Origin: Amphiscolops sp. MND2022
Lineage: Eukaryota
DNA length: 64,000 bases
NCBI GenBank assembly: GCA_964187785.1
Contig: OZ076409.1
Location: forward strand, 1,116,001-1,180,000
Reading direction: 5' to 3'
Shown here: positions 2,823-41,080 of the stretch, one piece after another
How positions within the stretch are numbered: the stretch's first letter is position 1
How the letters are laid out: each line of letters begins with the position of its first letter
Translations under genes and position numbers: made by a program
Notes under the pieces: model-generated
Databases searched by the model: none
What the model was told of the DNA's origin: nothing
What the model saw: the letters and a program-made list of their open reading frames with translations, nothing else

Positions 2823-2922
2823 CTGTGACCAGCAGCACCACACAAACATACCCAGTGGATCATCCACTCACAATTCTCTGAATTCTCTGTGTGTGTCTTG
2901 CTATTTTCATACGACACTTATA

Positions 2923-3100
2923 CAGTTTAACTTCAGTATTACACACCTCGTTGGGAGCAAACGGTCAAGTACGTTATTCTGAAGTGTGTGTTATAAGCGA
3001 AAAAGACCAAATGATGAAAACCAAACACGGGGGCACAAAATATGTGCGTTATTCTGAAGGTTACACTATAGTGCACGTGTGTGATACTGAAGTTAAACTG
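2923..3100. mobile_element. Tc1/mariner-type MITE, absent from the duplicated copy
   Basis: TIR CAGTTTAACTTCAGTAT / ATACTGAAGTTAAACTG with TA TSD; empty site at ~7562 (CTTATACACC). Confidence 0.85.
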
Positions 3101-5806: not shown

Positions 5807-8800
5807 CTTGTAGGTCTGAGGCCCGGCACAGCTGATCTTGCACACGTCGCAGTAGTGCAGGGGACCCCGGGGGATGTAAGCAGCCCCGGAGGAGTTCTTG
5901 TCGCCCCCACCTCCACCCCCTGGGTCCCTGGATCTCTTCTGGAAGCCAACCACGTGCGAATGGCCGCCACTGCTGCTGTTGTTGTGACCACTCCTCTCTG
6001 CACTGCCACTCCTTCTATCTCTGCGTCAGTCGTCAGAGCTCAGTGTCGTGCAATTAACACTATACCAACATTGTTAATTAACAAGCCTGTTTAAACTGTT
6101 TTTAATAGGCATGTACCGGAATTCCGGTCCGGCCGGATTTCAAAAAAGTTCCGGTTCTGGCCGGAATCATCATTGGTTCCGGCCGAAACAAAATTCTCTT
6201 AAAAACAGCATTGTTTCCAAAATGTTTTAAATTGTTTCATAAATTGATACAATTGACTAAAACAATTTCAGATTATGGTGAAGAGATAAAAGTTTTTCGC
6301 CAGTTTGTGGAAGAAGTCTGCTTCTTTTTTCTTCATATATGTTTCCGAATTCGGAGAACAGCCTTTCTGAATAAACAGATGACAGAGGTGATGTCAGAAA
6401 TTTCTTCGCAACTTTTTTCATAGAACGTAAATGTAGGATAGCACAATCAAAGTTCCGGTCCGGTTCCGGCCGGAACTGAAAAACGCATTCCGGTACATCC
6501 CTAGCTTAACACCAGTTTTTTAACAAGGTTATCAGAATGTTGAAAATTCCATGGGTTCTAGTCAAAAACTGAAGTGTTTCAGATGACGAGGGTCGTGGTG
6601 TACGAACTGCAAAAACGAAATGGTCAACAATGCTGGAATGATGGAAAGCCATTTTATTGCTTGCTCTAAAAAACTGGTTTATGTACCGCCAAATGAACAA
6701 AAGGTGATGGAATTACTTTGCGATAACTTAATTCCATCACTTTTTGTTCATTTGGCGGTACATAAACCAGTTTTTTTAGAGCAAGCATTTGTTTTTGATA
6801 TTTTTAACATAATTTACATGTTTTTTATTTTAACTGTTAAAAATATTTTAAACTAACAACTTAACAGCCCTGCTAACTACTGCACTAAGTTTATTCTAAC
6901 GTTATTTTAGTGTTAAGGGTGAATCGTTAACAAAGCATTTCGTAATACGAGCGAGAGAAATATTTCTCTCAGCCTTTCTTTAGTCTAATTTCTCAGTCAA
7001 AAGATCAATTCACGCACGATTTGCAGAAATTTTGAATGTTTTCGTCGGCATGAATATGCACAAAGCTCAACTACTAATCGATTAGCACCTCAGCAAAGTT
7101 TTGAAACATATTTTCGGAAAAAAATGACAAAAATGAGCCGTAAAATTTTGACTTTTTTGGACAAGTTTCGAACCTTTCGCTGACATAAGTATATTGATAA
7201 AGGATTTTAGACATTTTATATGAATGATCGATGATGTATTTTCGACCTACAGTAGTATTTTCTTTTTAGATGAAAGAGTAGTACGACACTGTCTGTGTCT
7301 GGAAGAGGCCGCCACAGGGATGCTGTTGGAAGCGGAGGCAGAGGAAGACGAGACAGCACTGTAGGTGCCAGAGGACGAGCCAGATGAGTTGCTGCCGGCG
7401 GGGGCATCTGGACCAGGGGTCAAGGTCTTGTTGAAACTGGATGCACTGGACGAAGAGCCACTTCTGTGACCAGCAGCACCACACAAACATACCCAGTGGA
7501 TCATCCACTCACAATTCTCTGAATTCTGTGTGTGTGTCTTGCTATTTTCATACGACCCTTATACACCGTTTCCCATTTAGATGAACAAAATTTCAAGTTG
7601 AATGAATTCACCAATAAGATGTAATCGTTCCACTTTTCTGTCATCGCTGATTGGTGTCAATTTAAATAAATTTCATTTTAGATGAATCTGCGAGTGGCGA
7701 TAGAACTCAATACGCAACAAAATTTCAATTTAATTGACTGAAATTCCATTTTAGATGAAATAATCACCAATTCTCAATAACTCCTTCTTTCGCTGAGAGT
7801 AAGAATTTGCTGCGCTTACCTTAGGCAACTGCTGCTTAATTCTCTGGCTTTCATTTTATTCAATTAAAATGACAATTTGGAATGACTCTGTTTTAATTGG
7901 CTGCCGAGTTTTGTTAGCATTCTTGTTTATTCAAATAAAATTAGCTTTCGTTCATCTAAATTGGAATTGTGATAGCGGTTTAGTATCATTTCACCCCACG
8001 TTCATTTCACCCCATGTCATTTCACCCTAGGTTCATTTTACCCCAGGTTCATTTCACCCCAGGTTCATTTCACCCCACGTTCATTTCACCCCACTTTAAA
8101 TTATCAAATGCGTCTCAGATTAATTACTAAAGCCACCCAATTTCACCAATTTCAATCTTAGCGCTAATAGAAAAGCGTCTTGAATCTAATTACCAATTAG
8201 ATAAGCAAACGATGCTTTCTATGTGAACCACAAATTCGAAACCGAATAGTTTCATTTATCGGAATTGTAATACTTCTGAAAAAGGCGCTGAATAAAATCA
8301 TTTTTCTTCTGTCAATCGGATGTTGCGAATCTTCAGCGAAAAATTTCTTATTCGGTGTTTCTACGGCAAAAAAATCCTACAGGTCAGAAACTGACAATCA
8401 AATCAAAGCTGACTCAAAGACTGTAGGCATCAAAATTTAATTGCTAATTGGTTAATTAAGGCGAGACGTTTTTGTATAATTACAATATGGTGTGAAGTGA
8501 AAATGAGGTGAAATGAACGTGGGGTGAAATGATTGTGGGGTGAAATGAATGTGGGGTGAAATGAATGTGGGGTGAAATGAACGTGGGGTGAAATGAATGT
8601 GGGGTGAAATGAATGTGGGGTGAAATGAACGTGGGGTGAAATGAATGTGGGGTGAAATGAACGTGGGGTGAAATGAATGTGGGAGGAAATGATATGGGGT
8701 GAAGTGATATGGGTGAAATGATTTTGGGGTGAAATGAACGCACACTGTGATAGCATTGATTCATTTTAATTGTCATAGGTGGAATTAAGAAGCACGACGT

Positions 8801-11800
8801 TCAACTAAATCGAAATTTTGTTCACCTAAATTAGAAACGGTGTATTTCATACTTAAGGGGGACACATTGGAAAATTAATCCCATTTTTGCATGTTATAAA
8901 TTTCCACTCAAAAGGTAACACCGTCCAAAACATTCAACGATTAGGCACCAATTTTCATCTCATTGCCAACTGGCTGCAAGCTTTGTGCCGTAGCAAGGCC
9001 AAATCTGAATCAAATTGACCCAATTCGTCATGCGAGGCGCAAAATTTAATAAACGGTTGATTTCGTATTTGTGTTAGCTGAGAACTGCGAACTCTAAATT
9101 TTATGCTCATACCATTCAAAAGTTGTTCGATGGGATTTAAGACAAAAATAGGCCCCTCCGGGGCTCAGTACTATTTCTGCCTTAATCTTTTTTTTTGAAA
9201 CAAAAAAATCATTAATAAAAGAATCATATCTGGAATACCAATACACTCTTGTTTAATGATTATTTAGCGCACAATTACATGTAATCACTGTACAAGTTTA
9301 CACTGCCTTTAATTTTTCTCGGACTAAAGAAGATATAACTACTAAGCGTAGACGAAGTTTCGCATTCGCATTTGAATGCAGGCGAAGCTCTCAACGAACG
9401 AATAATTAACACTCATTCGCTTCATCTCAATAACTCGGAGCAACGAAAGCACAATTACGAACATTCGCTCGCTTCATCTCAATGACGTCAGCATACGAAT
9501 GGATAATTACCACTCGCTCGTTCCATCGCACTAGAATTGAATTGTCTTCGGCAGCTCTCTCGCTTACACTCACTGCCGAACAAAATATCTGAATTATTCA
9601 GATCGTCCGAAAAATTGTTCTGAAAAAAAAGTAGACGTTTCCAGATTTCAATAATATTCCTGCTAAAGCAGAAATATTAATAAAATGTTTCACTGGAGTT
9701 TCAAACAAGCCGGTAACGGCATAAGTCGGCGCCATATCTAAGGCTCAAAAATAGCAAAAGGACTTCAAAGTGTCAAGTATTCTCTTCTACAGTACCCGAA
9801 AAACTAAAAAGTTGGACCGAACTGGCGCGCTAAAAGGGGAGACCCTTTCGGATTTTTTACCATTCATTCTGTTGCAAAATATCAAAAAAATGAAGGGGGA
9901 CCCTTTGGCTAAAAAATTCAAAAAAATCTCACAATGCTGAAAAAACAGAGACCCTTTAGTCTCGCCCGGTATTGTATGTTGCGCTGATAAAAAGGGTCAA
10001 CTCCTTTGCTCCTTTGGTTAAGTTCCTTGGGCCAAATGGTTCAATTTGACACATAAAATTTCGTAGAACTTTGTAGAACTATTGTGGTCACTACAGGTGT
10101 ATCGAAAAAAAATACTGACGAAAAGCCATGACTATAGTCGACTCTTTATGAAGAAAAGCGCCGACTAAAAACGAAGGGCGGAAAGTTTGTTTTTTTTTTT
10201 GGGGGGGGGGGGTGTTGTTTGAGAACTGGTTGGGTTTTGAGTAGTGAATTAGGTGTGTGTGTGTGGTGCCTGTTGTAGCGATCGCCTCCTCCTGCTCGGG
10301 AGCCGGAGTTGCTGCCTCGGGAGAAAGAGGCAGTGCCACTGTGCTCTGACGACGACGACGACGACTTGTGATGGAAGCTGCGACTGGAGGAGCTGTTGTT
10401 GCCGCCAGAGCCACTGCCACTCGAGGACCCAGACCCAGTCGCCGTAATTGTCGCAATCGCATTCGCACTTTTGTATGCTGAAACCACCATCAAGTGTTAC
10501 TCACCATTCACGTTGACTCACTTGTCTGTTTGGAAACTACCAAAAAAGCATTCCAAAGCCGCCGCCGCCACTATTTTGCTGGATGATTTAATGTTATAAA
10601 TTGTGAAACAGAAGTCCTTGTATCATACTCCTTATAATCAATCCACTCTTTCATCGATGCACTCGTCCAACACAACAACATCATCCACTAGAAAGAGGCT
10701 ACACTGAGGATGTGACAATGAGACAACACACCCCATCATACAAAACAACTCAACAGTTTTGAGAAACCTAAACCACATAGTTTTTAATGAGGTTTCATTG
10801 CATGTGAAAGCATTCTAAAAATTCACTTGCAGTTGCAGGCAACTTTTATAGCAGTCGCAAGACTTCAACTTGAAGACTGTTTTTCGCTGCTGGTGATTCC
10901 AATGGCCTAAAAATCTTCACAAGAGAAGAGCAGAGAGGTTTATTTCCCCAATTCCGCGGGGTGGGCGACTCCGAATAAGCAGCACTTCTGATTTTCTAAG
11001 TCGGCGCTCTTTCGGATACTAAAAAGATTCTCCCCAAAAAGATTCTCACACAGTCAAAGCGAATAAGTACTTGTGTGAACAATCCAAGCAACAGTGAAAC
11101 ACAGAGGCGAAGCGGTGCTTCGCAACACATGACGAAGACAACGATTTTAATATGCGTATATATATTATTTTAATCGCATGCGTATATATTCAACAGTTCA
11201 ACTTTGTTCAATAACGTCCCTATGGCACAGTGGTCAACACTCATGCCGTGCAATCGGGAGGCTGCAGGTTCGAATCTCTCAGGGGTTTTGGCTTTTGTCT
11301 AAAAGGCGCTCATTATGAAGTTGACTATTGTGGAAAAAAAAACTTTCTTAGCTGGACTGCAATGCACATTGACTTCGTCATGTGCAAAAATAACTTTTGT
11401 GTTTTTCATTCATATCTGCACGAGCAAGCTAGCAGTAAAAAACGATGCTTTTTAGACAGTTACAGTCAAACTCGGGTAAAAGAAACTCAGAGGGTGGTAA
11501 GAAAAGTGTTCCTTTTATCCATAGTTTCTTTTATAAGTTGTCCTATTAGAATCGTAGAATGTTTGTCTTGTGTAAAAGCGGAGGAGTGAAAACGTCTCTT
11601 ATATCCAAATGTTTCTTTTATCCGAATTCGACTGTATTAAGTGTTATTGTCGTCAAGTGTGAACTTGTCAAAGGATAGGGTTTGAGAGCAAGACTAACAG
11701 GAAGAGGAGCCGCCACTTCTGGAACTGTTGTACTGGTCGCCTGGCTGGTAGCCCACAGTGCCCCCGCCCCCGTAGCCAGAAGAGGACCCCCCAGAGGAGG

Positions 11801-14800
11801 AGGTAGCACCCACAGTCGGCTGCTGAGTCATCCCTGCTGCAGCCAGGTTCGTGGCAGCCCTGTCACCACATTCACCGGGTTGGGGGAATTGATAATTGAT
11901 AATAAGATCGTTATACAGACAACTGCAGTTAATACAGTCAACAGCAGTTCTTTAAACAGTAGCAGTAACTTGATGCTGTTTTTATTCTACTTCCTTTTTT
12001 GTATTTGTATGATTGCTCACTTTTTCAAACAGGGTTCGCATGTTTGAAACATGCCTTGTTTTAAACGCGTTTTAAACATGTTTTAAACAGTGTTTTAAAC
12101 ATAACGAAAACCTTCATTCTGCTCAATTGTTTTTCTTTTTTTTCAGATTGGACATGAGTACTCCAGTCACAACCACTGGTCGATCTGGTTTTGATCCCAA
12201 GTTCGGCAGACTTAGAACGCATATTCAGTAGCTTGGGGTTCGTCCACGATGAGACACGAAATCGACTATCCATTGAAAAAGCCAACAAACTTGCATTCTG
12301 TCTTCGATTGTTGCAGTTCATGTACTTATGTCGTTTAGTGTTAGAAGTATTTATGTGATTTATTTAGAGTTTTAAACATGTTTTAAACAAAAAAATTTTA
12401 TGTTTTAAACGTTTTAAACACACGATTTTTTCCAAATCTTGTTTTTTTTCCGAACCCTGTTTTCAAATTGATTCCTCTTGATTGAAAAGGAGTTATAGCT
12501 TATCTATCAACCACTGCAGAAGTATGTCTCACATAAACTAAATAGTAAATGGACGGAAATGAAAACTTACCACAGTCAACTCCGGATAATTCGCATCTTC
12601 GGTTAATTCGTCTGTATCTGAGACCCTTATCTCGCGACGACCAAAGTATTATCATCCACTTATTTCGTATTTCTCATTATTCGTACCATTTCATCCGGTC
12701 CCTAACCATACGAATTAGCCGGATACGAATTATCCTGATACCAATTAACCGGAGTTGACTGTAGTAAGTTTTAATTTCCATTCATTTACCATTTAGTTTA
12801 TGTGAGATATACTTCTGCAATGGGTGGTCGATACAAAACCCGTGACTCCTTTTCAATCAAGAGGAATCAATTTGCGAAAGTGAGCAATCATAGAAAAAAG
12901 GAAGTAGAATAAGAACAGCATCAAATTACTGCTACACTTACCGTTTCGAGAACTTTGTTACCTGAAGGTTTTGGGAAACGCAAAAACTTAAAAGGTCAAA
13001 AATTTCCCCATACATGTCATCAGTGCTGAAATTTTGACGAAAACTGCAAAAAAGCTTGAATTTCATATTTCAGCGAAATTGGCAAATTGAAATAGCGGTT
13101 TAGCGATTAGCCGGAAAAAATTAGCGATGTCAAAACCCTGTTTAAGTATATTTGGAATGAAGTCAGTGCAGTTTCACATGATTAATAGCCAACCCACCAA
13201 CCCGGTGTAGGCAGCGGCATACTGAGCGGGGTAAGAAGCGAAGGGCATGAGGGGTGATGCGGTCATGAACCCGAAGGCGGCTGCGGGGGGCATGGGCATG
13301 GCAAAGGCGGCTTGTGGGGTGCCAAGACCACCCACGGCTGCACTTTGGGCACCGGTCGCTGTCTGCTGTTGGGGCTGAAGCACCTGCTGCAGCGTCCACG
13401 TACAGTGCATTGACCTGACCTGACCTGACCTGACTTGACCTTCCATCCAATCAATCTACCCACCCTCTCAACTCAACCAGGTAGCGACAGTCCGAAAAGA
13501 AGAGAGTTTGGAATAACCAACAATCAGAATTCTCGAACTGAAGATATCCAAATAGAGACACTGACCGTGAATTTCATATCAAACACCTCAACCACGAAAG
13601 AGTACACGAAGGAGAAACACACGCAGAAACGAAACCGCAAGTGAGATGTAACGCAAAGTGTCCAAGGAACGTTTTGCCTTGGAGTTCTAATCCGGAAGGA
13701 ACAGAGCCTCTGACACCAAAGATTTGATATTTGAACGCGGCATAGTCACGCCAATCAAACCCAGTGGATGCAGCGGTTGCAAATTACCAGAGAGCTCGGG
13801 CTTGGAACAATATTTGAATTTATTTCGAAAAATTGTTAGGGTATAACAGAATTGCGAATTTTCAATGCATTTGTTTGGTAATATACTTTATTTCACAAAG
13901 CGATGTATTAAAAGGATTATTTAACTACGAAATAATACACCGTGGAATTTCTTAGACATAAATACTGCATCGAGAACTGATGCATCGACATCATGGAACG
14001 CCGTGAGAATCTTTTCTGTAGCGGGATCTTTTCTGTTAACCCACCCCCCCCCCCACAGTAAGCGCGGAAATTTTAATTCCCCACCACTATCAGCGATGAT
14101 TTTCAGTTGCAGTTAGAGTTATAAAATACTGCAATTTGATTAATTTGATTGGTTGTTACTATTAATTCAATGATGATTTCATTTGACCGCTTACCTGGGG
14201 GGAATTAAATTGGTAGGGGAAAATATCAACAGAAAATTAACAGGAAATATCCCTGTAGCGTCCACCTTCACGTAGGTCAAACAATCCATTGTCAATTGCA
14301 TCGATCGAGTGATGTTGTAACCGTCTATATATAAGACCAGTTGTCGAACAGATCAGTCGTAAGGTATTTGCTGACAATGGATCTCTAATAACTGTTATAT
14401 GGTGTAGAATGAGTTAGAAACCTAACAGTTTTCAGTTCTAATTTTTTTCAGTTCTTTCAGGTTTGAGATTGGCTAACTTAAATGTGGCAAACCATAGTTT
14501 AACTAGTTTGCTGTCACAACATACAGTAACTTGAGCTGTGTATTTTATATATATCGTATTCGTGGTATTACGAACAAGGTATTGAACTTCAACTAGAAGT
14601 CATCAACGTAATGTCTTTCAGAAGGTTTTTTGGAAACAAATAGTCACAGAAATGGTCTAGAGCAACTCAACTGAAACATCGTCAAAAACAATGTCAATTT
14701 TTGTGCCGAATAATTTGTGTAATTATACACAAGTCTTCAGTGATGGATTCTATTTTTAGAGAGGAAACAAGCTTTTCTGGCACAAGAGCTAATAATCCGA

Positions 14801-17800
14801 ATCTACAATTACATCGATAACATGAAAGCTCATTACAGTAAACCCTCAATTATCCGCCACCATCGGTCCAGCACGAATTATGGCGGATAAGTGAGAGTGG
14901 CGGTTAATCAAGGGAGCTTAGACACGAGGGTTTTAGCGAAATGTCCCCGTAGATTTATGGCGGTTGACCAAAGGTGGCGGATAATCGAGTGGCGGATAAT
15001 CGAGGGTTTACTGTATTACCAAACTGTCGTATTGAGTATTGGAGGAAATGGTCTTGACGAGTGGAAGGGAATACGAACTTTAGCTGCAGACGAGGTTACT
15101 TTTTTGTAACTTACACATGCAACATTTTGTTACATGCAATCATTAAAACAGTCAACCAAAAGCTTTTTACATTCCTAGATCTTAAGGTCGGAATACTGTT
15201 GGGAACGTATTTCATCGCATAACGTGAGCAATTTTTCAAAGGATAAGATTGTTTCTAACAGTCAACATTTCTTCACGTAAAAGATGCAATGCCGAGGCAA
15301 CTATAAATCGTCAAAATGCAAAATGTTTTGTAACAAAGTGACTTGACCGTTTCAAGTAGACGATGTATATCAGTGTCATTTATTGACATCCTTTTTTGTT
15401 ATAGGTCGCTAATCACATTTTTAATTCAATAGCTATGTTCACTGATAAAACAAGCCATGTTCATGCAAAATGGGGTAATTATGCGTTGAAACAGTTCGTT
15501 CGACAGCATCAAGGCACTGAACAACATTTTGTCAGTCAATGCTACTAGTGCGAAAATGCCATTTGACTTTAATGTACTCGGAGTTACGAAAAGCTCCGAC
15601 AGAAATGTTAGTGATGATCAAGTGCACCTAACTAACAACGGAGTAACAAATTTCACATCTGTTCCACTCAGACATTATCGAAGTGTTTGTTTAAAAAAGA
15701 ATATGGAAATATTCATACATTATTTTCAATAAATTCGAAAGTCACCTTAATTTTGGTAAAAAGTGATTGTTTAGCTAGTACTGATCGAATGTAGAAAACC
15801 ATTTTTACTGGTTTTCATTCTTCCTGTTGTGACTAGCTTTGTCTTAAGGGAGAGCAACTTGTTTTCGTGAAATGAAACTAGTATTTTTGTAGATTTAGAG
15901 CAACTGGCTTGCGAACGCTTGTCCCTGACTACATCACTGTGACTTCCAAGGACCTTTTGGCAGTGAAGGGACCTTGGTTTACTGCTGTGCATAATGAGTC
16001 TACTGGAGGCAAGTATTGCAAGACTAGCATCCGGGCGCAAGCTTTGGATCATTTCCACTAATCTTCGCAATTCGTGTTGAATATTACAGACCTCAACAGC
16101 GTGTATTGTTTTTTAATGTTCCCTGAGAGCATGAATCGGAACGAATGGAAATTGTGTAGAGAGCTGCGTTATCATTTGGCCGAACCTGGTGATGTGCTAA
16201 TTTAGCCTCCTTTCCGATGGAATGTCAAGGTGGTCCCTTGTGCATGGATGGGAAGGCGTTGACATCAGCCAGCGATTTGAAAAGGGGGAGTGGAGTTTTT
16301 GGAAGATTTAGCTTGAGCTCAGGTCAGGAATATGTAGAGGAGTCGATACAAAGGTATGGATTGGACAAATTGATTGATCGCATCCGGCAGAGATTGGAAA
16401 CGAGCCTTGAAAAAATACAGAAGTCTCGCGTCAAGCTCCGCGTCTGGTGTCCAATCAGTTGATTCGCCAAACAATGCTGTGTCATCTACTCTGAAGTGGT
16501 TCTCTGAGAGTGTTGTATTAGATCATCTTGAAACATTCAAATTATTGGATATGACTTGTCAAGCAGCTTTGAAAATCGTAATAAACGTAACGAAAACCAT
16601 GTCGAAGAAAGAAGTCGCGGCTCTCTAACATTAAACGAGCAACGACTTCTTCAATCGTAGTTGCTCCTGAACTACCTTATCCCGACTCGGAAGACGAAGA
16701 TGTTTACTCTTCTCCTTTCCGGTAGTAAGAGCACTTCGATAAAGTATCCTAAATCAATAAAATTATTGATCGTTGAATAGCGGAAGATTCCCTTGTGTTA
16801 TTCGATGAGTGTCATTCAGCAGTGATATAATGAGGATAAGCGTCATTTATTGAATGATACCCAGCCTTCTGCTCAAGATTGTAAAATGATGAAATCCGGA
16901 GATGATAGTAACGGTGAATGAGTAACAAAAGCTGGTAAGTTGCATTTCAGAAATTGAAGAAGGATCAGATAGGGATTGCCTGCTCGTTCTGATCGAACCA
17001 AAGCATCAGAATTTCGAAATAACAAATAAAATAAACGCAAAAGCTGATAAATCTACTTCTGTTTCTCGTTTCTGTTCTATTAGTCTGTTTTTCTCTCAGA
17101 ATTGATTATAATTTTTTTATTGTCACTTTCGCTGTTCTGGTGGGCTTCAATTTCTACATCGGTAATCATGTGGGACAGGTAAGTGATTGCTTGAATGCAA
17201 TGACAGAGGAATCCAGGTAAGAAAATACACAATTGAAGAATTGAAGGAAAAAAAAAAGATTTCGGAGTCAAAAGGGGGTAAGTCCTTGAAATGTCGAAAT
17301 TTCGATAAATCCAAAAATTCGTTCAAACATTTTGTAGTCAAGCTTCTTTGGGTGTCGACAGAGACCATGCTAAAACTGTATTGAAACACAACGTAAATCG
17401 AGAAGTATTTTGTCGCCTACTGAGGAATTGTGCTACTTATGACACATGTGAACAACAAAAAACTAAAAAATCTCGAAAAAACTGTAGAAATCAAAAAATC
17501 CCGCTCAACCATTTTGTGTGTAAATCGATGAGTTTTGTTTCGTCAATTCTTGCTTTCCCGATAGGCTCAAGAAATTGTGAAATTTTATTTTTCTCGAATA
17601 ACGTTAGAAATTCAGAAATTGGCTTCAACCAATTGATGTAGGATCATAACAGGTATATGCACGCGCAATTTCATTGCTTTGGAGTAACTAGCGTGAAATC
17701 GAGAAAAAATCGACTTCCTGGAGATATCGGGCTTGGAAATTTATGATGAATTGGAAATTGCTGCTGGTTCAATTGGTTATTTGGCCATTGAATCGACTGC

Positions 17801-20800
17801 GATGCACCCACAGGAAGCTTTCTGAGCTTTACTATGGGACGTATGATATGACCAGATGCTGTTCCGAGTTTCGCAACTTTATTTTTATCGTCGTTTCCAG
17901 AGTACAACTGCTCGATTCTCGCCAATTTCCATCGCAAAGGGGGCATGTTGTCCTCTGCTGACAAAACCAGGTGGCCAGCTGGAAACTAGGACCCGATTGA
18001 AGCCATCAATTGCGTATTTGTAGGGTCACTATGTAATCACGATACCATGCCTTCCAAAAGTGACCTCCTCGATGCTTTAAGTAGTTTGAATCTTTGTCCG
18101 ATATCAAGTTTATCATCAGATTGACGAGCGTGCAGAGTTGCACAGAAGAAAATGAGCTAGAGTATTCGGCTAAAGGTCATTCGGTTCGCTGGACATGCTG
18201 ACAGTGGTCGAGAATTCAGAATTCCTTCTATTTGAATTACTCGTGTGTTGAGCTCTTCGAAAGTTTCTGCGCAAATGACGCTTCATGCGCTCCACTGCCG
18301 CTTCTCATAATCTTCCAAAATGCGGTGTCCTTCGAGGAATCATTTTTCATTCGATCATTTCTTGGGATATGTAACTTCCGATTGAATTCTGTTCTTTTCC
18401 AAAACCATGTCGAAGAAAGAAGTCGCGGCTAACATTAAACGAGCAACGACTTCTTCAATCGTAGTTGCTCCTGAACTACCTTATCCCGACTCGGAAGACG
18501 AAGATGTTTACTCTTCTCCTTTCCGGTAGTAAGAGCACTTCGATAAAGTATCCTAAATCAATAAAATTATTGATCGTTGAATAGCGGAAGATTCCCTTGT
18601 GTTATTCGATGAGTGTCATTCAGCAGTGATATAATGAGGATAAGCGTCATTTATTGAATGATACCCAGCCTTCTGCTCAAGATTGTAAAATGATGAAATC
18701 CGGAGATGATAGTAACGGTGAATGAGTAACAAAAGCTGGTAAGTTGCATTTCAGAAATTGAAGAAGGATCAGATAGGGATTGCCTGCTCGTTCTGATCGA
18801 ACCAAAGCATCAGAATTTCGAAATAACAAATAAAATAAACGCAAAAGCTGATAAATCTACTTCTGTTTCTCGTTTCTGTTCTATTAGTCTGTTTTTCTCT
18901 CAGAATTGATTATAATTTTTTTATTGTCACTTTCGCTGTTCTGGTGGGCTTCAATTTCTACATCGGTAATCATGTGGGACAGGTAAGTGATTGCTTGAAT
19001 GCAATGACAGAGGAATCCAGGTAAGAAAATACACAATTGAAGAATTGAAGGAAAAAAAAGATTTCGGAGTCAAAAGGGGGTAAGTCCTTGAAATGTCGAA
19101 ATTTCGATAAATCCAAAAATTCGTTCAAACATTTTGTAGTCAAGCTTCTTTGGGTGTCGACAGAGACCATGCTAAAACTGTATTGAAACACAACGTAAAT
19201 CGAGAAGTATTTTGTCGCCTACTGAGGAATTGTGCTACTTATGACACATGTGAACAACAAAAAACTAAAAATCTCGAAAAAACTGTAGAAATCAAAAAAT
19301 CCCGCTCAACCATTTTGTGTGTAAATCGATGATTTTTGTTTCGTCAATTCTTGCTTTCCCGATAGGCTCAAGAAATTGTGAAATTTTATTTTTCTCGAAT
19401 AACGTTAGAAATTCAGAAATTGGCTTCAACCAATTGATGTAGGATCATAACAGGTATATGCACGCGCAATTTCATTGCTTTGGAGTAACTAGCGTGAAAT
19501 CGAGAAAAAATCGACTTCCTGGAGATATCGGGCTTGGAAATTTATGATGAATTGGAAATTGCTGCTGGTTCAATTGGTTATTTGGCCATTGAATCGGCTG
19601 CGATGCACCCACAGGAAGCTTTCTGAGCTTTACTATGGGACGTATGATATGACCAGATGCTGTTCCGAGTTTCGCAACTTTATTTTTATCGTCGTTTCCA
19701 GAGTACAACTGCTCGATTCTCGCCAATTTCCATCGCAAAGGGGGCATGTTGTCCTCTGCTGACAAAACCAGGTGGCCAGCTGGAAACTAGGACCCGATTG
19801 AAGCCATCAATTGCGTATTTTAGGGTCACTATGTAATCACGATACCATGCCTTCGAAAAGTGACCTCTTCGATGCTTTAAGTAGTTTGAATCTTTGTCCG
19901 ATATCAAGTTTATCATCAGATTGACGAGCGTGCAGAGTTGCACAGAAGAAAATGAGCTAGAGTATTCGGCTAAAGGTCATTCGGTTCGCTGGACATGCTG
20001 ACAGTGGTCGAGAATTCAGAATTCCTTCTATTTGAATTACTCGTGTGTTGAGCTCTTCGAAAGTTTCTGCGCAAATGACGCTTCATGCGCTCCACTGCCG
20101 CTTCTCATAATCTTCCAAAATGCGGTGTCCTTCGAGGAATCATTTTTCATTCGATCATTTCTTGGGATATGTAACTTCCGATTGAATTCTGTTCTTTTCC
20201 AAAACCATGTCGAAGAAAGAAGTCGCGGCTAACATTAAACGAGCAACGACTTCTTCAATCGTAGTTGCTCCTGAACTACCTTATCCCGACTCGGAAGACG
20301 AAGATGTTTACTCTTCTCCTTTCCGGTAGTAAGAGCACTTCGATAAAGTATCCTAAATCAATAAAATTATTGATCGTTGAATAGCGGAAGATTCCCTTGT
20401 GTTATTCGATGAGTGTCATTCAGCAGTGATATAATGAGGATAAGCGTCATTTATTGAATGATACCCAGCCTTCTGCTCAAGATTGTAAAATGATGAAATC
20501 CGGAGATGATAGTAACGGTGAATGAGTAACAAAAGCTGGTAAGTTGCATTTCAGAAATTGAAGAAGGATCAGATAGGGATTGCCTGCTCGTTCTGATCGA
20601 ACCAAAGCATCAGAATTTCGAAATAACAAATAAAATAAACGCAAAAGCTGATAAATCTACTTCTGTTTCTCGTTTCTGTTCTATTAGTCTGTTTTTCTCT
20701 CAGAATTGATTATAATTTTTTTATTGTCACTTTCGCTGTTCTGGTGGGCTTCAATTTCTACATCGGTAATCATGTGGGACAGGTAAGTGATTGCTTGAAT

Positions 20801-23800
20801 GCAATGACAGAGGAATCCAGGTAAGAAAATACACAATTGAAGAATTGAAGGAAAAAAAAGATTTCGGAGTCAAAAGGGGGTAAGTCCTTGAAATGTCGAA
20901 ATTTCGATAAATCCAAAAATTCGTTCAAACATTTTGTAGTCAAGCTTCTTTGGGTGTCGACAGAGACCATGCTAAAACTGTATTGAAACACAACGTAAAT
21001 CGAGAAGTATTTTGTCGCCTACTGAGGAATTGTGCTACTTATGACACATGTGAACAACAAAAAACTAAAAATCTCGAAAAAACTGTAGAAATCAAAAAAT
21101 CCCGCTCAACCATTTTGTGTGTAAATCGATGATTTTTGTTTCGTCAATTCTTGCTTTCCCGATAGGCTCAAGAAATTGTGAAATTTTATTTTTCTCGAAT
21201 AACGTTAGAAATTCAGAAATTGGCTTCAACCAATTGATGTAGGATCATAACAGGTATATGCACGCGCAATTTCATTGCTTTGGAGTAACTAGCGTGAAAT
21301 CGAGAAAAAATCGACTTCCTGGAGATATCGGGCTTGGAAATTTATGATGAATTGGAAATTGCTGCTGGTTCAATTGGTTATTTGGCCATTGAATCGGCTG
21401 CGATGCACCCACAGGAAGCTTTCTGAGCTTTACTATGGGACGTATGATATGACCAGATGCTGTTCCGAGTTTCGCAACTTTATTTTTATCGTCGTTTCCA
21501 GAGTACAACTGCTCGATTCTCGCCAATTTCCATCGCAAAGGGGGCATGTTGTCCTCTGCTGACAAAACCAGGTGGCCAGCTGGAAACTAGGACCCGATTG
21601 AAGCCATCAATTGCGTATTTGTAGGGTCACTATGTAATCACGATACCATGCCTTCCAAAAGTGACCTCTTCGATGCTTTAAGTAGTTTGAATCTTTGTCC
21701 GATATCAAGTTTATCATCAGATTGACGAGCGTGCAGAGTTGCACAGAAGAAAATGGGCTAGAGTATTCGGCTAAAGGTCATTCGGTTCGCTGGACATGCT
21801 GACAGTGGTCGAGAATTCAGAATTCCTTCTATTTGAATTACTAGTGTGTTGAGCTCTTCGAAAGTTTCTGCGCAAATGACGCTTCATGCGCTCCACTGCC
21901 GCTTCTCAGAATCTTCCAAAATGCGGTGTCCTTCGAGGAATCATTTTTCATTCGATCATTTCTTGGGATATGTAACTTCCGATTGAATTCTGTTCGTTTC
22001 CAAGGCGAGAAGCTCTTTCACATTGATGTCATTGCTAGCTCCAATTAATTTTTTTTCGTTGTTGCTGATTATTTTTCTAGGTACACCGCGTCTGGAGATG
22101 AATCGTTTGATGACAGAAACGCATGATTCCTCCGTTAGATCTGTTACCGTTTCAAAGTGAAGAGCTTTATTCACAAATCAAACGAAAATGGCTATGTACG
22201 TTTTAACTCCAGGTTTAGTCAAATTGGTCCTGCCAAATCCAAGGCACATGTCTCGAAAGGGTTTGCAGGCGTTGTCCGTTCAGCTGGTAAATCAGCCATT
22301 ATTGATATGGTATTTTATTCTCGAAACGATTACATTTGATGCAGTGTTTGATCATCTTTTTCACAAAAACTTTGGCATTTGGAGTTCACAGTCAGCGTAG
22401 CTTTATGAAAGTGATGAAGTATGAGAACTGCCAGTAACGAAACTTGACTGACAAGCAATTGAAACTTTTGCAATTCTCTTAATTGTCCCCGAGATAATCG
22501 TCCACCCAGTCGACTGGTCTCGCTCTCGTCACCGAAGAATGGAGTCACGTTGAGAAATTTGTTCTGTTTTGACAGTTCTTTGGCCGATTTCAAGTTTTGA
22601 TATTCAACTGCATAGTATTCAAGTTGGTGTTCCTGAATTGTTTTCCGAGATGATCTAGCTCGAACTGTCGTCTGGATTCTGAATGCAACTTCTTGGTCAA
22701 AACATGAACCCAAACAAAGTCAGTTGAAGATATGTCTACCTCCAGAGCTTGAATTGCCATCGAATTCGCTTCGAAAGCGACAATGAGTTTCCGCAATTCT
22801 GACGCTGATTCACCTTGGAGTGGTTTCAAACTGAAAATCGCTGACAAATGAGTATTGACGATGAGTCTTTGGTTGTCATATTGAGCGATCAAAATCTTCA
22901 AGGCTATTTTGCAGTTTGTGTTTGACAAAGGTAAATACGAAATGAGTTGTGAAGCATCGTCCACAAGAGAGAACTTGAGATACTTGAATTTTTCTATATT
23001 CGGTAGTGTTGTGGAACCATTCACAGATGTCGTGAATTGTTCAAAAAATAGCGTCCAATTCTGATACTCTCCATCAAAACTTGCCAGATTGAATTTTGCA
23101 ATCTTGAGGTTACTTGAAGAATTGCTTACCATTGTAGAAGTAACATTTTCAAGACAGGGACCACAATTGTTGAATTGTTCCAAAAACTTGACTTTTCTAA
23201 AGCTCAAGTGATATTTTACAATTCGCAGTGATGAGCTCTTCTTGTACCTCTTCGTGTGTAATAGGGGTTTCCTCCAGAATTGCTGCATTCAGAAGTTTAG
23301 CGTCGCTTAGTTTTTTCTCAAACAAGTTTGACTTCCAAATCGGCTATTTCATGGTCTGACACTTTCTTGGTTGTTCATGATTGGTTGTATTATGGTTAAC
23401 ATCTTAGTTATTAATCCTGTGATTGCAGAACGAGATCGCCGCTTGAGTTGTGAAGTGTTTTTCCATCGTACATTTCCAAGACATTTCTGATTGTTCCCGG
23501 ATCGCTATGCACCAATATAAGTTGACTAGCTTTGTCTTAAGTGAGAGCAAATTGTTTTTGTGAAATGAAACGTATTATTTTTGTACATTCACAACAACTG
23601 ACTTGCGAAGAAAGAAGAGTGAAAATAAATACGTGAACAAGGTTATAATGTCAATGAATAGCACGTGTCTTTAACTAGTGCGATATAAAACTCAATGGAA
23701 AGAATATTACAAAGTTTGAATTCACAAGTGTTTTTGTATGCAATGCATCAACACTACCTCATTTATCCAGAAATGGGAGATGTTGCAAGCGTATTGGAGA

Positions 23801-26800
23801 GTTTATGCTAAAGATTGTTGTTAGTTCATGTTCACATTTTTTGCAGATTGTAACAGATGTCCAATGCTAACAGAAGGAACAAGAACTTCAAGAGAGTGAG
23901 ATGAGCAAAAACTCTTGCAATTGGTTTTGTTTTCCTCCAAATATTATTTATTTCGTTGAATTGTTCAACTACAATTTGGGTAACATCCTAATTACAATGT
24001 TGGGTACAAGATACAATTCTAAAATTTCACAGTTGCAATACAACACAACTTGCTCGTTTTGAAATTTTAATCTTGGAAGTAACAATACTAATCAAAGTCG
24101 TTCAACATTTCAAGCATATTCTAATAGTTGTGACAGTCGGTTTAAATCATGATGTAGGTCATGTGATCAAATCGATAGTCTCATGTTAAACGAACTAAAC
24201 AATTTCAATCAACCAAAAGTCACCTGCTCTAGCTCATTACAACGATGGAATTTTTGATAAGACACGATAAAATCGTGAATAACAGGTAACTTTCTCTTTT
24301 AGTTTCAGAAAAAAACTGCGCGAAATTTGGTCAAGCTCGGGTTTTGAAGACAATTTATCTAGTTTCAATCTTTTTTCAATGATTCAAGATCCCAAAAATC
24401 ACTGCCCAATTATTCCCCGCAATTCAATTATTCAGTCTTTGGATCGGATTGCGACCCAATTATTCTAAAACATCATCAATAATAAAGATTAGATTGAACT
24501 GCTGAATTTCTTATGAATAAAATTGAATGCATATGTAATGATGCAAAATTTTATAAGGTGGTAGTCTTAAAAATCTTTGAAAATGACCCAAGAACAATGG
24601 GTGATGGAAACGATAGCGAGACCACCCAAGCAGAGGATGTTACAGGTGTTACAAAACGAAGTGATTGTGTCTATATGCCATTTAAATACCATATACGGCT
24701 GTATCAAAGGTCTCGACAATAAAATAATATCTCAAAGAGGCCCTCGACAACCCTTTTATTGCCTTGACCTTTATTTCACTGTCGTGTAACTAATACAAAT
24801 AGTACATCATTGCAATTCAGATTGTTTAGCCACTGTGTGATGTCTTGCGTATTGATTTCAATCATTGAAACCACTGTCTTTATCATTTCTTGTTATTGTT
24901 AATGAAATTACATGATTGAACACTGTGAACATTGAATATCCATCGTGATTGGATTGCGTACTTTAAAAGAAACATGGAATTAAAAACAAACTTGAGATGG
25001 GGGGTTTCACATTCTTAAAGAGTCAACCAACCTTGAATGAGTGTCAACCAAAGTTTGATTAACTTTTTTTTCAATATTGGAAATAATCTAATTTTCAGCA
25101 ATTGAACGCCGAAATGTAGAGAAACCACAATGGCTCGTGTATCTGTTTTTTAAAAAAAATTTTGTCGTCCATGGCATGATAATTGGTGTTATTCACGAAA
25201 AATTACAATTGAGAAATGCGAATTTGATGTGTGAGACACCACCGCTAATACCCTTTATTCACAAAATCCACATACAGAACAGATTCTTTAGAAATAGCGG
25301 AAACCGTCCACGTGTAGGTTGATTTCAGACGGCATAGCGACAACTCATATCACGCGACAACTCGTATCAATTTGAAAAAGCGACAACTCATATCAAGCGA
25401 CATCTCATAACAGGCGACAACTCGTATCAATTTGAAAAAGCGACAACTCATATCAAGCGACATCTCATAACAGGCGACAACTCGTATCAATTTGAAAAAG
25501 CGACAACTCATATCAAGCGACATCTCATATCAGGCGACAACTCGTATCAATTTGAAAAAGCGACAACTCATACCAATTAGGAAAAAGCGACAACTCATAT
25601 CAGGTTTGCCAATAGATTACAATACTTGTATTTCAAGAAAAATTTAATAAATGCAATTAAAAATTCTAGTTTATTTATAATTATTTCGCCATTCAGGCAC
25701 TCTACCCACCACAACTATTTTCTCCAAAACCATTTGAACGAAGGTGTGATGAGGAAATGATTATCCATGACACTGATATTTACGATGAAAGCTTGTTACT
25801 ATTTCTAATAATTGCTTGTCAATTATGTAATTTTCTCTAATTATCTAATTAATAAAGATTTAAATTTTCTGATGAGTTTGATTGATATTGGTTATCGCTT
25901 GATATGAGTTGTCGCTTTTTCAAATTGATATGAGTTGTCGCCCGATATGAGATGTCGCTTGATATGAGTTGTCGCCGTACGATTTCAGACTATTGCGAAC
26001 TTAACGGATTACTTCACACAATTTGGAAAGTGTTCACCTAGATGCGGATCATGTGGATATAACGAAGAGACAGCGCAGCACCTTTAATACATGTCTGCAT
26101 ATAATATCTGCATTCTTTGCAAAGAATTGAGAGAAAATAGGAACGATGGAAGATCCCACTTGGAAGCGCATCAAAACAACAACATTGCCGAATATTATTT
26201 TCCGCCCCCACAAATTTTTCATAATCTTATCGCAATTATCATATTCTGTGTTGCGTTTTCTCCAAGTTTTGCAAATCTCCACTTTTTACTGCACTCATTT
26301 AATATCCTGGTGCTTAGAAAAAGAGCTGCCATTTGTACCAGCACGCTATATCCGAACTTTCAAGGTTGTATACGAAGTAATTGTGTTTTACTGAGGAGGA
26401 AGCGTAGGTTCGAAAATATTGCGCTATACAGTGATGACCAGTTTAATTCTTTTAACGGATAAAATAACGGATTTTGGTTTTTCAGAAATTTAACGGATCT
26501 GTTGAGCTGATCTACATGTCCAGAAAAAATTTTACCTGGTATAATAAATTGGTAAGATGACAACAAAAATAACAGGAACAATATTTATCAAAATCAAACA
26601 AGAATTAATTAAAAGAAAGTTATTCCGCCTAATTCCATTGTAAACTTTGTCGCAAATATTGCATTTATAATTGTCCGTAAATTGTAAATAAGTGAATTTC
26701 TTCTCAATGAGTTCTCGCTCAACTGTTTGTAAACGAGGCATCTTTAAAGATGCTGTTTTTGATTTAATCTAGGCCTGAATAGGCAGTAAGTAAATATATA

Positions 26801-27970
26801 AGGCAGCTACTAGACCGTTGGCTGTTATCAGATGTAGTGGTACAACGAATAACAGCAAGTTTACACAACTTATACTACTGTCACAGCTAGTTGTTTACAC
26901 AACTGTCAGTCGGTCCGATCCTACCATGCTCATGCATACGGATACCAGTCAGTCCAATCCTACCCCCTAGCAGATTACATTACTATCAGACCGACTATTA
27001 GATCCGACTATACAAACATACAAATATCCGAATTCATCTTTCAGACAACAATGACTACTGTATCAGATGTAATTTAGATGTATGCTGAATTAAATGTGAA
27101 GACTTATCCGTTGAACAAATAAAACGGAATTTATAACAGCATTACGTTAAACCCGTGAACTTTTAAATAATAGATAATATAACGTATCCGTTAATATTCC
27201 GTTAAACGTATTGCAAAAACTGGTCATCGCTGGCGCTATATCCGAATTTTGACGTTACATCCGAAGTGAATTGCGTTTTACAACGAGGTTAATTTTCGAT
27301 TAAGCTCATATTGTTAGCTCATTGAAGGCGGAAAATCTCCCGGTGCATAGAGGGCGGCTCGTATTTAGGAAATAGATTGCCTTACCAACTCGTTAGCAAG
27401 TGAAATTGAGCAAGTTGTCATTGTGGTCCAACGGAACAGGCCAGTAAGTAAGTAGAACACAGAATTCCATAAATTTATAAAGAAACTCGTCATGAAAGAT
27501 GGCAGTGTACCAATAAATTGAATCTTATACTAGGCAACCAAGACTTCTTCCCACATGGAGACTAGAATCTAAAATCCACCCAATTCAAATCGTAATCAAG
27601 TGCTGGGTCCATCCTATTTTAAAGTGATACACCACTTTTAATTTTGATTTGAATTGCTGATGTTTCGATTCAAGTTTCCTTGAGCAGTGAGTTCCAAACG
27701 GAAATGATGCGCTAGAAAATGGAAACTTTCATATTTAAGAAATGGCTAAGAAGTTGAAAAACAAATGTGCAACGAAATCCTCCTCAAAAATTATCCTTAT
27801 TACGTCATTCAAAGGTCAATGCACTGGACCTGTGACTGGGGCTGTTGGGCGACTCGGTACAAGTTGGCCATGTTGGCAGCAGCCACTGCAGCCGCCGCAG
27901 CAGCAGCCGAATTGGGGATGCCAGACATCTGGTTGGGGCCAGCGGCGAAGTTCATGTTGAAGAAGCTCAT
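5807..27970 (-). CDS. ZFR: ZFR/Zn72D-like zinc-finger RNA-binding protein, 5' part (exons 1-6; gene continues left of the window)
   Basis: Phase-consistent manual model: exons 27970-27830, 13386-13202, 11859-11699, 10477-10270, 7463-7290, 6020-5807. Q/A/Y/S/G-rich N-terminus (MSFFNMNF...YPAQYAAAY...) followed by LHYCDVCKISCAGPQTYK, which I recognise as the first U1/matrin-type finger of ZFR. Confidence 0.85.
7977..8745. mobile_element. Mutator/Foldback-like element with inverted arrays of a 15-bp TCATTTCACCCCACG-type unit
   Basis: 9-bp TSD TGTGATAGC at 7968-7976 and 8746-8754; empty site at ~3416-3424 in the other copy; the arrays at the two ends are in opposite orientation. Confidence 0.85.
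9703..10171 (-). mobile_element. Helentron/HINE-like non-autonomous element (dispersed family)
   Basis: On the minus strand: T-run, then AGTCGGCGC subterminal IR, later GCGCCGACT, a short GC hairpin (GCCGTTACCGGC) and TTT. Related copies ~31111-31590, 36315-36632, 39000-39570, 43156-43797, 46270-46545(+), 54526-55114(+). Confidence 0.6.
11216..11285 (+). other. tRNA-derived sequence (SINE head or tRNA pseudogene)
   Basis: A-box TGGCACAGTGG and B-box GGTTCGAATC at tRNA-like spacing; the cloverleaf stems are degenerate. Confidence 0.5.
11463..11634. mobile_element. Tc1/mariner/pogo-type MITE
   Basis: TA-CAGTCAAACTCGGGTAAAAGAAAC ... GTTTCTTTTATCCGAATTCGACTG-TA. Confidence 0.75.
11957..12935. 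mobile_element. Long-TIR palindromic element carrying a nested hAT MITE (12030-12459) and a Tc1-type MITE (~12573-12761)
   Basis: Arms 11957-12029 plus 12460-12550 are inverted relative to ~12780-12935. Nested CAGGGTTCG...CGAACCCTG has an 8-bp TSD TTTTCAAA. Central CAGTCAACTCCGG...CCGGAGTTGACTG. Confidence 0.75.
14836..15013. mobile_element. Tc1/mariner-type MITE
   Basis: TIR CAGTAAACCCTCAATTATCCGCCAC / GTGGCGGATAATCGAGGGTTTACTG; TA TSD. Confidence 0.85.
15826..23610 (-). mobile_element. Decayed BEL/Pao LTR retrotransposon inside ZFR intron 1
   Basis: Gag DUF1759-like segment (FDGEYQNWTLFFEQF...KFKYLK, 22590-23288); integrase core remnants (ALHFETVTDLT...FISRRGVP); DUF5641-like tail (PLRWKLARIEQLYSGND...RPIVKL). 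LTR-like homology 15826-15915 vs 23521-23610; PBS-like TGGTGCAT next to the 5' LTR; purine tract at ~16204-16215. No protease, RT or RNase H visible. Confidence 0.88.
16593..22000. repeat. Tandem array of three ~1.8 kb units (starts 16593, 18401, 20201)
   Basis: AAAACCATGTCGAAGAAAGAAGTCGCGG recurs at ~1800 bp spacing; near-identical ORFs are repeated three times. Confidence 0.97.
25331..25980. mobile_element. Mutator/Foldback-like element with GCGACAACTCATATCA subterminal repeats (60-bp higher-order unit)
   Basis: Flanking direct repeat GATTTCAGAC at 25321-25330 and 25981-25990; the arrays at the two ends are inverted. Confidence 0.85.
26429..27232 (-). mobile_element. Internally deleted hAT transposon retaining a BED-finger-like N-terminal fragment
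   Basis: TIR CAGTGATGACCAGTTT / AAACTGGTCATCGCTG; 8-bp TSD GCGCTATA; ORF 26532-26741 contains YKCNICDKVY. Confidence 0.8.
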
Positions 27971-39800: not shown

Positions 39801-41080
39801 AAAATGCGCAGACTAATGAACGTTCAAGCTATTTTTTGCTAATTTTTTCCTCGAAAAAATGTTTGCCAGTTCGAAACTATTTTCTGTTGACACAAATCCG
39901 TTGGGTTTTCCGCTTCGATTCTGTTTTCAAAAACGCCCAGGGCACACGAAATGCCGGAGCTCAAGTAGTTCTGCGGCGCCTTGTTATTGAATAGGTAGAA
40001 ATGAATCCATTTCTGCCGGTTACATTACATTTCGTCCAATACACTTTCAACCTATGCAATTTCAACCGCTCACAATTTCAACCTGTTGCATTTTCAACCG
40101 TCCGCCATTTCGACCTAAACTAATTTTGGCTTTTAGTCTTTTAGTTGAGCTATTTTTTAGTACGATCATTACTAATGAATCAAACAGCCTCAATTAATGG
40201 TAACTATTCATGAAGAAGCCAAAACGTATCAAAACTAGCGTAAGAATTCGCACAGTTGAATTTATAAATGTATGAAAGTTGGAACCACCAAAATAATTGT
40301 TAACTAATTAGGATTCATTAGCCAAAATTAGTTTAGATCGAAATGGCGGACAGTTGAAAATGCAATAGGTTGAAATTGCAGTGCATAGGATGAAATGTCC
40401 TGACACCATTTCTGCCATCCAACATTCACCCCAAGTGAAAACAAGACGCCCGCTAAGCACCGGGATACTTTCCGCCTTCTTAGTTGACTATTTTAGAAGA
40501 TTCTTCTCCAAATTCTTCTATTTTAGTTACCAGTGACTAAATGCGTCACTATGAGGAGTTTACTAGAATGAGCATATGCAGGGATGAGATTTTGAGCATA
40601 CGTCATTCTGGAGCGAGTATGCGTCAACAATAGTCAAGTAACTACAAAAATAGTCAAGTAACTAAAAATAGTCAAGTAACTATAAAAATAGTCAAGTAGT
40701 TTATGGAGATCGTGGAGATTTGGCAGAATTTGTAAAACCAAACGCAACATAGATTATGATTTTCCTGCTCCATTATATGTGGGCGGAAAATAGTACTATA
40801 GTCTTTCCATATACATGTATAAAGCAGCACAGCACTGGGCTAGGTGTTGGTTGTAGTGGATGGGGTCGGAGAAGTGCTTGGGACTCTTCTCTCCAGGGTA
40901 GTTGCGGGAGGCGTTCTTCATGCGGATGCTGCCCTGCATGGTGTAGACTATGACCACGTAGAGCAGCATGCCGGCCGCGATGAGGTTGACGCAGTTGACT
41001 GCCGCGTCTATCAGGTGGTTCCTCAGCATCTTGCTGTGGTACGACGAGTCCAGTTTCAGAAGCCCGAACTTCCACGGCAT
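30888..41080 (-). CDS. Adhesion/secretin-class (family B2-like) 7TM GPCR
   Basis: Phase-consistent exons 41080(ATG; may extend to 41103 and an exon at ~41628-41700)-40836, 38539-38372, 37897-36672, 35731-35411, 34576-34401, 32851-32537, 31088-30888. Cys-rich HRM-like segment; TM1-ICL1 YGLFPKLRTERTPTKILLTLC; TM3 YLTLVTLTWCSIEAFNLY; TM4 GLGLPAAIV; TM7 QGLYVFVVYC...RKQW. Confidence 0.85.
32875..33379. mobile_element. piggyBac-like MITE
   Basis: TTAA TSD at 32871-32874 and 33380-33383; imperfect TIR CCTTAAATTGGCCA / TGGTCAAGTTAAGG. Confidence 0.7.
40018..40407. mobile_element. Mutator-like MITE with TTTCAACC subterminal repeats
   Basis: GGT...ACC termini, inverted arms, 9-bp TSD ATTTCTGCC at 40009-40017 and 40408-40416. 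Confidence 0.8.

Follow-up and report, generated by a model that had tools for sequence, protein, structure and literature searches.

How is an intron recognized when its donor departs from the consensus and its acceptor lacks a pyrimidine tract? The question is raised by the fourth intron (Z4) of a gene for ZFR, the zinc finger RNA-binding protein, in the acoel Amphiscolops sp. MND2022. We analyzed 64,000 nucleotides (nt) of contig OZ076409.1 (assembly GCA_964187785.1, positions 1,116,001 to 1,180,000; hereafter the window, numbered from 1), in which the ZFR gene occupies 27970-5807 of the minus strand. A preliminary description had singled out the GC donor of Z4 and a helix joining the two ends of this intron. 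That helix is one instance of a window-wide pattern, in which the two ends of most introns are complementary to each other. In the view that we lean towards, Z4 is a U2-type GC-AG intron from a large set of lineage-specific introns that would combine relaxed donors with structural bridging and would have been gained recently.

Donor and end-to-end helix of ZFR intron 4

The ZFR gene owes its identification to exon 6, which matches named ZFR proteins in protein searches. Its six exons, when joined, form one open frame of 361 codons. Its introns and relevant exons are as follows, all on the minus strand.

Intron 1 (Z1), 13387..27829: 14.4 kb, GT-AG, with a perfect 14-bp stem pairing 27826-27813 with 13416-13403
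Intron 2 (Z2), 11860..13201: GT-AG, with a perfect 11-bp stem pairing 13207-13197 (six bases exonic) with 11883-11873
Intron 3 (Z3), 10478..11698: GT-AG, stem not above chance, acceptor richer in T
Exon 4, 10270..10477: Ser/Gly-rich, GC 0.60
Intron 4 (Z4), 7464..10269: 2,806 nt, modelled as GC-AG in phase 2, with a predicted junction
Exon 5, 7290..7463: a possible tandem acceptor lies 3 nt downstream (7461)
Intron 5 (Z5), 6021..7289: weak GT donor ACA/GTGTCG, with a perfect 9-bp stem pairing 7291-7283 with 6049-6041
Exon 6, 5807..6020: first zinc finger, followed by the donor of the sixth intron (Z6)

Exon 4 ends at 10270 (…TACAACAG) and Z4 starts at 10269, CAG/GCACCACACACACACACC, the slash marking the junction. 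Compared with the donor consensus MAG/GURAGU (PMC3167603; this and the other papers cited by PMC number are drawn on in part), CAG/GCACCA agrees at five of nine positions, comprising the whole exonic half, +1 and +3, and deviates at +2 and at +4 to +6. The assertion that this donor has no U1 consensus was thus overstated. The companion statement, that ordinary GC-AG introns need a near-perfect GCAAGT context, agrees in direction with the tendency of human GC donors towards a stronger remaining consensus (PMC3167603).

The pairing originally described, between +1 to +18 of the intron and 7493-7476 of the minus strand, was recovered with 16 Watson-Crick pairs out of 18, and its 3' arm does stop 12 nt before the AG at 7465-7464. 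The full helix joins +1 to +20 with -13 to -32 through 18 Watson-Crick or G-U pairs out of 20, with a duplex energy of -26.2 kcal/mol. Its arms are:

Z4 5' arm, 10250..10269, minus strand: positions +1 to +20, CA-rich, covering the donor
Z4 3' arm, 7476..7495, minus strand: positions -32 to -13, TG-rich, occupying the place of the pyrimidine tract

The ungapped score of this pairing, 13, is reached nowhere else in the intron (2,701 internal nt). It recurs once on the minus strand of the whole window, at the identical sequence in a 99% duplicate copy, and 0/400 and 1/400 random partner windows attained it. The stem is present in the minimum-energy fold of the whole intron (2.9 kb; 26 pairs). 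When G-U pairs are scored permissively, the TG-rich 3' end of another intron nearly equals the Z4 pairing (17.0 versus 17.5), so that CA/TG composition must contribute part of the score. The stem had been called microsatellite-like; the CA/TG arms are there, but their repeat character is incidental, eight other introns pairing through ordinary and mutually unrelated sequence.

The duplicate copy, at 1-3581 of the minus strand, is 99% identical to 4626-8911 and comprises the 3' part of Z4, exon 5, Z5 and exon 6. Some transposon blocks are missing from it; its exon 5 differs by 3 nt, in frame, and its exon 6 has a 1-nt frameshift within a run of G. It is probably an uncollapsed haplotype; were it a true duplicate, the donor arm of Z4 would have two identical docking sites. 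The body of Z4 consists of nested transposon-like repeats. Two arrays of a 16-nt unit lie within it in opposite orientation (7986-8094 and 8484-8738) and could form a long internal hairpin; the second copy is without both.

A search for RNA runs on 5700-14400 found none listed; the reading frame favors the GC junction. Five AG/G sites lie in the open frame of exon 4, and only that at 10269 is in phase with the acceptor at 7464. The nearest in-phase GT donors lie at least 27 codons upstream and match the consensus at 2-4 of nine positions; a GT at 10226 requires a phase-0 acceptor, with many residues gained or lost. When 12 candidate donors were tested against the acceptor region of Z4, only 10269 paired with it (13 versus 4-7). 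One could still envision that Z4 is mis-modelled, that one of these GT donors (27 or more codons upstream, or 10226 with a phase-0 acceptor) is the true one and that the CA/TG match is a low-complexity coincidence. The weak homology across the junction, the openness of both frames past the proposed ends, the near-tie under G-U-permissive scoring and the presence of homopolymer-type assembly errors would all fit such an error. Protein searches with ZFR did not recover a complete acoel ZFR that crosses this junction, and of the 36 hits of one search the eight examined were uninformative. However, the alternative donors are poor matches, shift the protein by at least 14 residues and have no stem, whereas G+C declines from 0.60 in exon 4 to 0.47 over +1 to +60 and 0.40 beyond. 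In addition, under strict scoring nothing else in 64 kb pairs equally well, the duplicate copy aside, and in the neighboring gene described below homologues fix two more donors of the AG/GNA class, one GG and one GA. We consider a mis-modelled Z4 improbable; judged by frame and parsimony, the GC junction at 10269/7464 is probably correct. Sequencing error at +2 of all three non-GT donors in the window appears unlikely at a copy divergence of about 1%.

Complementary intron ends and relaxed donors

The other introns modelled belong for the most part to a secretin-family-like seven-transmembrane (7-TM) gene (41140-30888, minus strand), whose six introns were modelled by frame and whose homologues carry PF00002. 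F2 belongs to a zinc-finger gene.

G1, 38540..40835, minus strand: weak GT donor; stem pairing 40837-40822 with 38578-38562
G2, 37898..38371, minus strand: CAG/GTA donor, T-rich acceptor, stem not above chance
G3, 35732..36671, minus strand: GG-AG, junction the same in four homologues; stem pairing 36670-36659 with 35766-35756
G4, 34577..35410, minus strand: GT-AG, modest stem pairing 35387-35379 with 34609-34601
G5, 32852..34400, minus strand: GA-AG, junction matched by three homologues; perfect 12-bp stem pairing 34385-34374 with 32867-32856
G6, 31089..32536, minus strand: AAG/GTA donor, stem not above chance
F2, 46176..48663, minus strand: GT-AG by frame only; long stem pairing 48666-48640 with 46207-46181
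F1, 53960-51062: uncertain model, no stem

For each intron, the donor region (-8 to +35) was scored for pairing with the last 45 nt. This stricter score replaced duplex energies, which were too lenient on G-U pairs (cross-pairs down to -36). Sets of 13 introns include F1; those of 12, used in the test with 200,000 permutations and in the direct-repeat and donor-match analyses, omit it. True end pairs score at least 8 in nine of the 13 introns and at least 9 in seven, as compared with 8/156 and 3/156 cross-pairs. Perfect helices reach 14 bp in Z1, where they span 14.4 kb, 12 bp in G5, 11 bp in Z2 and 9 bp in Z5. In 200,000 permutations of 12 introns the true sum was never attained, whether Z4 was included or not; with 13 introns, at most 7/20,000 permutations reached the true value under each of 15 parameter settings. 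Nine control pairs taken across exons all score 5-7, none above 7, and the pairing thus spans introns and not exons. Seven of the nine stems overlap the donor or begin no more than 4 nt from it, and the 3' arms stop 4-24 nt before the junction. The arms are unrelated from one intron to the next and are mostly not microsatellite; tandem AC/GT arrays at intron ends were not reported anywhere within the window.

By eye, the 3' ends of G3 (35744-35738) and Z1 (13398-13394) can be seen to contain a second, shorter complement of the donor, matching +1 to +7 at -13 to -7 in G3 and +1 to +5 at -12 to -8 in Z1. Two registers are possible for the stems of these introns.

The 7-TM gene contributes two further departures from GT. 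All six of its junctions align without indel with P0242 (874 aa, from a 3,281-nt Logan contig), G1-G5 do so with P0244 and P0245 (from clusters with Convolutriloba macropyga and Symsagittifera roscoffensis), in which G6 falls in a poorly aligned tail, and G1-G3 do so with P0243. After the shifts allowed by junction repeats had been analyzed, the solutions ending in AG were GG-AG for G3 and GA-AG for G5, and the indel-free alignment of four and three homologues, respectively, forces these assignments. The non-GT donors, CAG/GCA (Z4), CAG/GGA (G3) and AAG/GAA (G5), all share an exonic AG and an A at +3. They amount to two GA/GG donors and one GC donor among 14 (the 13 modelled introns and Z6), a small sample. 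All 13 models begin with G and end with AG. On its minus strand the window has 165 AG/GNA motifs, and 3.7 kb of exons contain six, a frequency that makes site choice by AG/GNA alone impossible. The expectation that GC donors would have stronger stems than GT donors found no support in this small set, in which GT donors also have strong stems.

The acceptors end in YAG. In 11 of 13 introns the segment from -20 to -4 contains 29-53% pyrimidine, like the intron body, and is usually rich in G. Among the 12 introns, the stemless Z3, G2 and G6 have GT donors that agree with the consensus at six of nine positions, and they rank first to third in T content at -20 to -4.

Bridging, masking and the origin of the introns

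The account that we lean towards can be set out as a series of steps. Given an AG/GNA donor, the spliceosome would disregard position +2, making GC, GG and GA usable, as homologues show for two introns and as may hold for Z4. Acceptors offer YAG preceded by mostly G-rich sequence. Since such weak signals are common (AG/GNA being found 165 times in 64 kb), most introns would bear their own pair of private complementary arms of 9-20 nt, one at or just past the donor and the other ending 4-24 nt before the AG. Once the 3' end has been transcribed, the arms would pair and throw the intervening kilobases of transposon filler into a loop, tying a given weak donor to a single weak acceptor. By analogy with the AC/GT bridges of zebrafish, the helix might substitute for the pyrimidine-tract/U2AF2 route. 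An arm that covers the donor, as in seven of the nine stems, needs to be unwound before U6 and U5 can engage; it would then open for them, and the helix would act as an early docking tether. Finally, relaxed donors together with bridging would make new insertions into exons tolerable as introns.

The position of the arms also admits the opposite role, that of regulatory masks which cover the donor, along with some of the branch region, and slow or gate splicing, for instance to control intron retention. That seven of nine stems overlap the donor or start within 4 nt of it would suit a mask, as would the Z4 duplex energy of -26.2 kcal/mol against -4.5 for the donor paired with a stand-in U1 end. 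The pattern, however, is found in most introns of three unrelated genes whose proteins require every junction to be spliced, the 3' arm, which is transcribed only after further kilobases, could not mask the donor initially, and masking weak sites further would gain little. We therefore regard masks as very improbable. More ambitiously, one might propose that in this acoel lineage splice-site pairing has shifted for the most part to an intron-private RNA code, in which the 3' arm by default captures the donor, delivers it to the branch/acceptor region and replaces site choice by U1 and U2AF2. We find this doubtful. If true, the private-arm code would have set off a recent burst of intron gain across the genome that close relatives lack, with nearly any AG/GNA being usable, and would be an animal's standard splicing route and not a minor class.

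The introns also look recently gained. P0243-P0245 are uninterrupted across the intron positions, on contigs of 122-264 kb, and the homologues would appear, from these uninterrupted gene calls, to be without G1-G6 (G1-G3 in P0243), Z5 and, for P0003, Z4. Gain in this lineage would be a simpler history than loss elsewhere. The single intron position seen to be common to relatives is that of Z6, whose donor AAG/GTAAGC is textbook; its acceptor falls outside the window, and Z6 was not scored for a stem. Both ZFR homologues that share this position, P0001 and P0003, terminate in what looks like intron sequence: each continues past the Z6 donor as …TYK-V, which indicates that the gene calls ignore introns there. 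In ZFR, P0001 seems to break in the middle of exon 5, and in the 7-TM protein P0243 seems to break after …LIVGLG, a hint that sister lineages gained introns independently.

Recent gain is also compatible with a different reading of the stems, in which introns and relaxed donors are real and the arms are decaying, non-functional relics of intron birth, either terminal inverted repeats (TIRs) of introner-like DNA transposons or inverted copies left by break repair. Where introns were gained en masse, as in Fritillaria, Amoebophrya and others, TIRs and relaxed borders do occur with them (PMC11282704), direct repeats of 0-5 nt lie at the junctions here, and several arms start with CA and end with TG. 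Against this, the arms are unrelated and have no further copies: a search of the window with 24 intron ends found no match to the ends of other introns except through one abundant internal repeat (G3 and G6). The longest direct repeat abutting the arms is 0-2 nt in each of eight arm pairs, so that target-site duplications were not found there, and the registers vary widely. Exonic bases lie inside the arms of Z2, Z5 and G1, and near-perfect arms survive around introns full of nested insertions, up to the 14.4 kb of Z1. The nonconventional introns of euglenids were considered as well, and 0/12 introns fit both halves of the Euglena code N3CDG…CH'GN5-6/R. Taken together, unrelated ends, lack of target-site duplication, exonic arm bases and the misfit to the Euglena code leave no visible introner family or euglenid class. 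Judged from 64 kb, decayed or low-copy elements may have been the source of the introns; that their stems are relics we hold possible, at rather lower odds than bridging. An abundant small repeat at 10171, 31589, 36632, 41942 and 54525 often ends 20-100 nt from a donor or acceptor, and G6 is bounded almost entirely by its ends.

A number of results weigh against the bridging account. The intron models were set on genomic DNA by reading frame and protein homologues, and the strongest stems (Z1, Z4, F2 and Z2) lie on junctions set by frame and GT/GC-AG. As the ZFR and F2 junctions were set with the stems in view, selection bias may have inflated the result; the six homologue-fixed introns alone give 2/720 permutations, ranging from 1/720 to 209/720 across the 15 settings. 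Four of the 13 introns (Z3, G2, G6 and F1) have no stem. Whole-intron folding covered nine of the 13, leaving out Z1, G1, F2 and F1; five of these nine retain the stem, which is absent from the minimum-energy structures of Z5, Z3, G2 and G6. The stem score is not significantly correlated with donor match (rho -0.42, p 0.17, n 12), and its relation to T content is significant at only two of five window sizes (p 0.02-0.11, post hoc). A helix lying on the donor should ordinarily impede U1. For Z4, the acoel orthologue fragment P0003 reads through the intron position (SGSR…NKTL aligns, with spacing off by two residues); exon 4 has no significant match to P0003 (best E 1.8), and the start of exon 5 matches weakly (E 0.008). 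The reliance on uninterrupted gene calls for the absence of introns from homologues belongs here too.

The closest parallels to a bridging function are the (AC)m-(GT)n bridges of teleosts and lamprey, in which arms likewise lie near both ends, span the intron and not the exon, and place the 3' arm where the pyrimidine tract would be (PMC4691745). In zebrafish, such bridges make U2AF2 dispensable (Lin et al. 2016, PMC4691745). The likening of Z4 to these bridges was apt in that the stem starts on the splice site and may serve a bridge-like role, but not in its emphasis on microsatellite make-up, which is incidental. Z4 has ACACAC from +6, within 40 nt of the donor, and TGTGTG in its 3' arm, and alone among the introns falls loosely under the fish definition, which counts both phases as AC/GT hexamers (PMC4691745). 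Unlike the fish arms, those described here are mostly non-repeat, unique to their intron and usually placed on the donor, and they also occur with GC, GG and GA donors. Stems are present in nine of 13 introns as compared with bridges in 0.09-2.29% of introns in fish, and the fish class is ancient with a demonstrated function (PMC4691745), whereas the acoel introns look recent and are known here from their sequence.

The donors, for their part, recall the GA and GG donors of the copepod Eurytemora affinis, which show the same obligate exonic AG, A at +3, AG acceptors and association with recent introns (Robertson 2017, PMC5714493). Non-GT donors make up 3/13 here and about 12% in Eurytemora, an animal of another phylum in which acceptors differ little between classes and for which the portions of the paper drawn on do not describe end-to-end pairing (PMC5714493). 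Introner or MITE introns of Fritillaria borealis, Amoebophrya, Polarella and Micromonas share mass recent gain, relaxed borders and inverted repeats near their ends (PMC11282704, PMC13326754); the introns studied here differ in having no shared TIR family or arm-abutting target-site duplication, in keeping G…AG and in their length of 0.5-14 kb. Euglenid nonconventional introns share paired ends, the lack of a pyrimidine tract and CA/TG at several stem bases (Nomura et al. 2025, PMC12501133), and are set apart by the G start, AG end and variable register found here. With ordinary U2 GC-AG introns Z4 has in common GC…AG and a strong exonic MAG/G, and it differs from them in lacking a match at +4 to +6 and a pyrimidine tract (PMC3167603).

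The pattern thus seems to work like a fish bridge combined with the copepod donor rule, a member of neither class as defined and here the majority state. Its ingredients are known singly; their combination in most introns of an animal, with unique arms covering the donor, was not found in the literature searched. That search, mostly outside subscription papers, found no report of non-canonical splicing, intron gain or introners in acoels. The acoelomorph genome papers PMC9911081, PMC6451197 and PMC10565955 do not mention unusual splice sites in the parts of their text drawn on, their supplements, which may bear on novelty, being outside its scope, and no acoel term occurs in the main text of PMC12130899. 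If the pattern is general, thousands of natural, independent arm pairs and close relatives without the introns would provide a direct test of splice-site pairing and of intron tolerance. Annotation restricted to GT and GC donors would break genes of this lineage.

Other features of the window

In a Pfam search in which 3/11 queries scored below 1e-10, the ZFR fragment and the 7-TM fragments were without match. Metagenome scans gave no match to the 7-TM protein and, for the ZFR finger query, nine loci whose matches were each limited to part of the query.

Within Z1, a textbook donor-like site (CAG/GTAAGC, 14194) lies 800 nt upstream of exon 2 and could possibly mark an alternative first exon or a cassette exon. 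The same intron contains a 1.8-kb unit three times at over 99% identity (16593-22003), adjoining the remnant of a DUF1759/Pao-type retrotransposon at 22590-23288.

A single-exon ATG9 gene at 56947-59481 is 69% identical to a cluster that includes Symsagittifera roscoffensis and 64% to Convolutriloba macropyga, against 52% or less for the other animals listed, which places the window in a convolutid acoel distinct from these two. A 99% duplicate of its 5' region lies within 58986-64000; this duplicate and the 1.8-kb repeats of Z1 are possible assembly artefacts. The homologues of ATG9 and of the 7-TM gene from S. roscoffensis clusters reside on contigs of equal size (229,772; 263,908; 151,056), which suggests that the linkage of the two genes is conserved. 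Between the ATG9 copies are intronless open frames with a DnaJ domain (60779-61585 and 61888-62163), possibly the cargo of a large DNA transposon.

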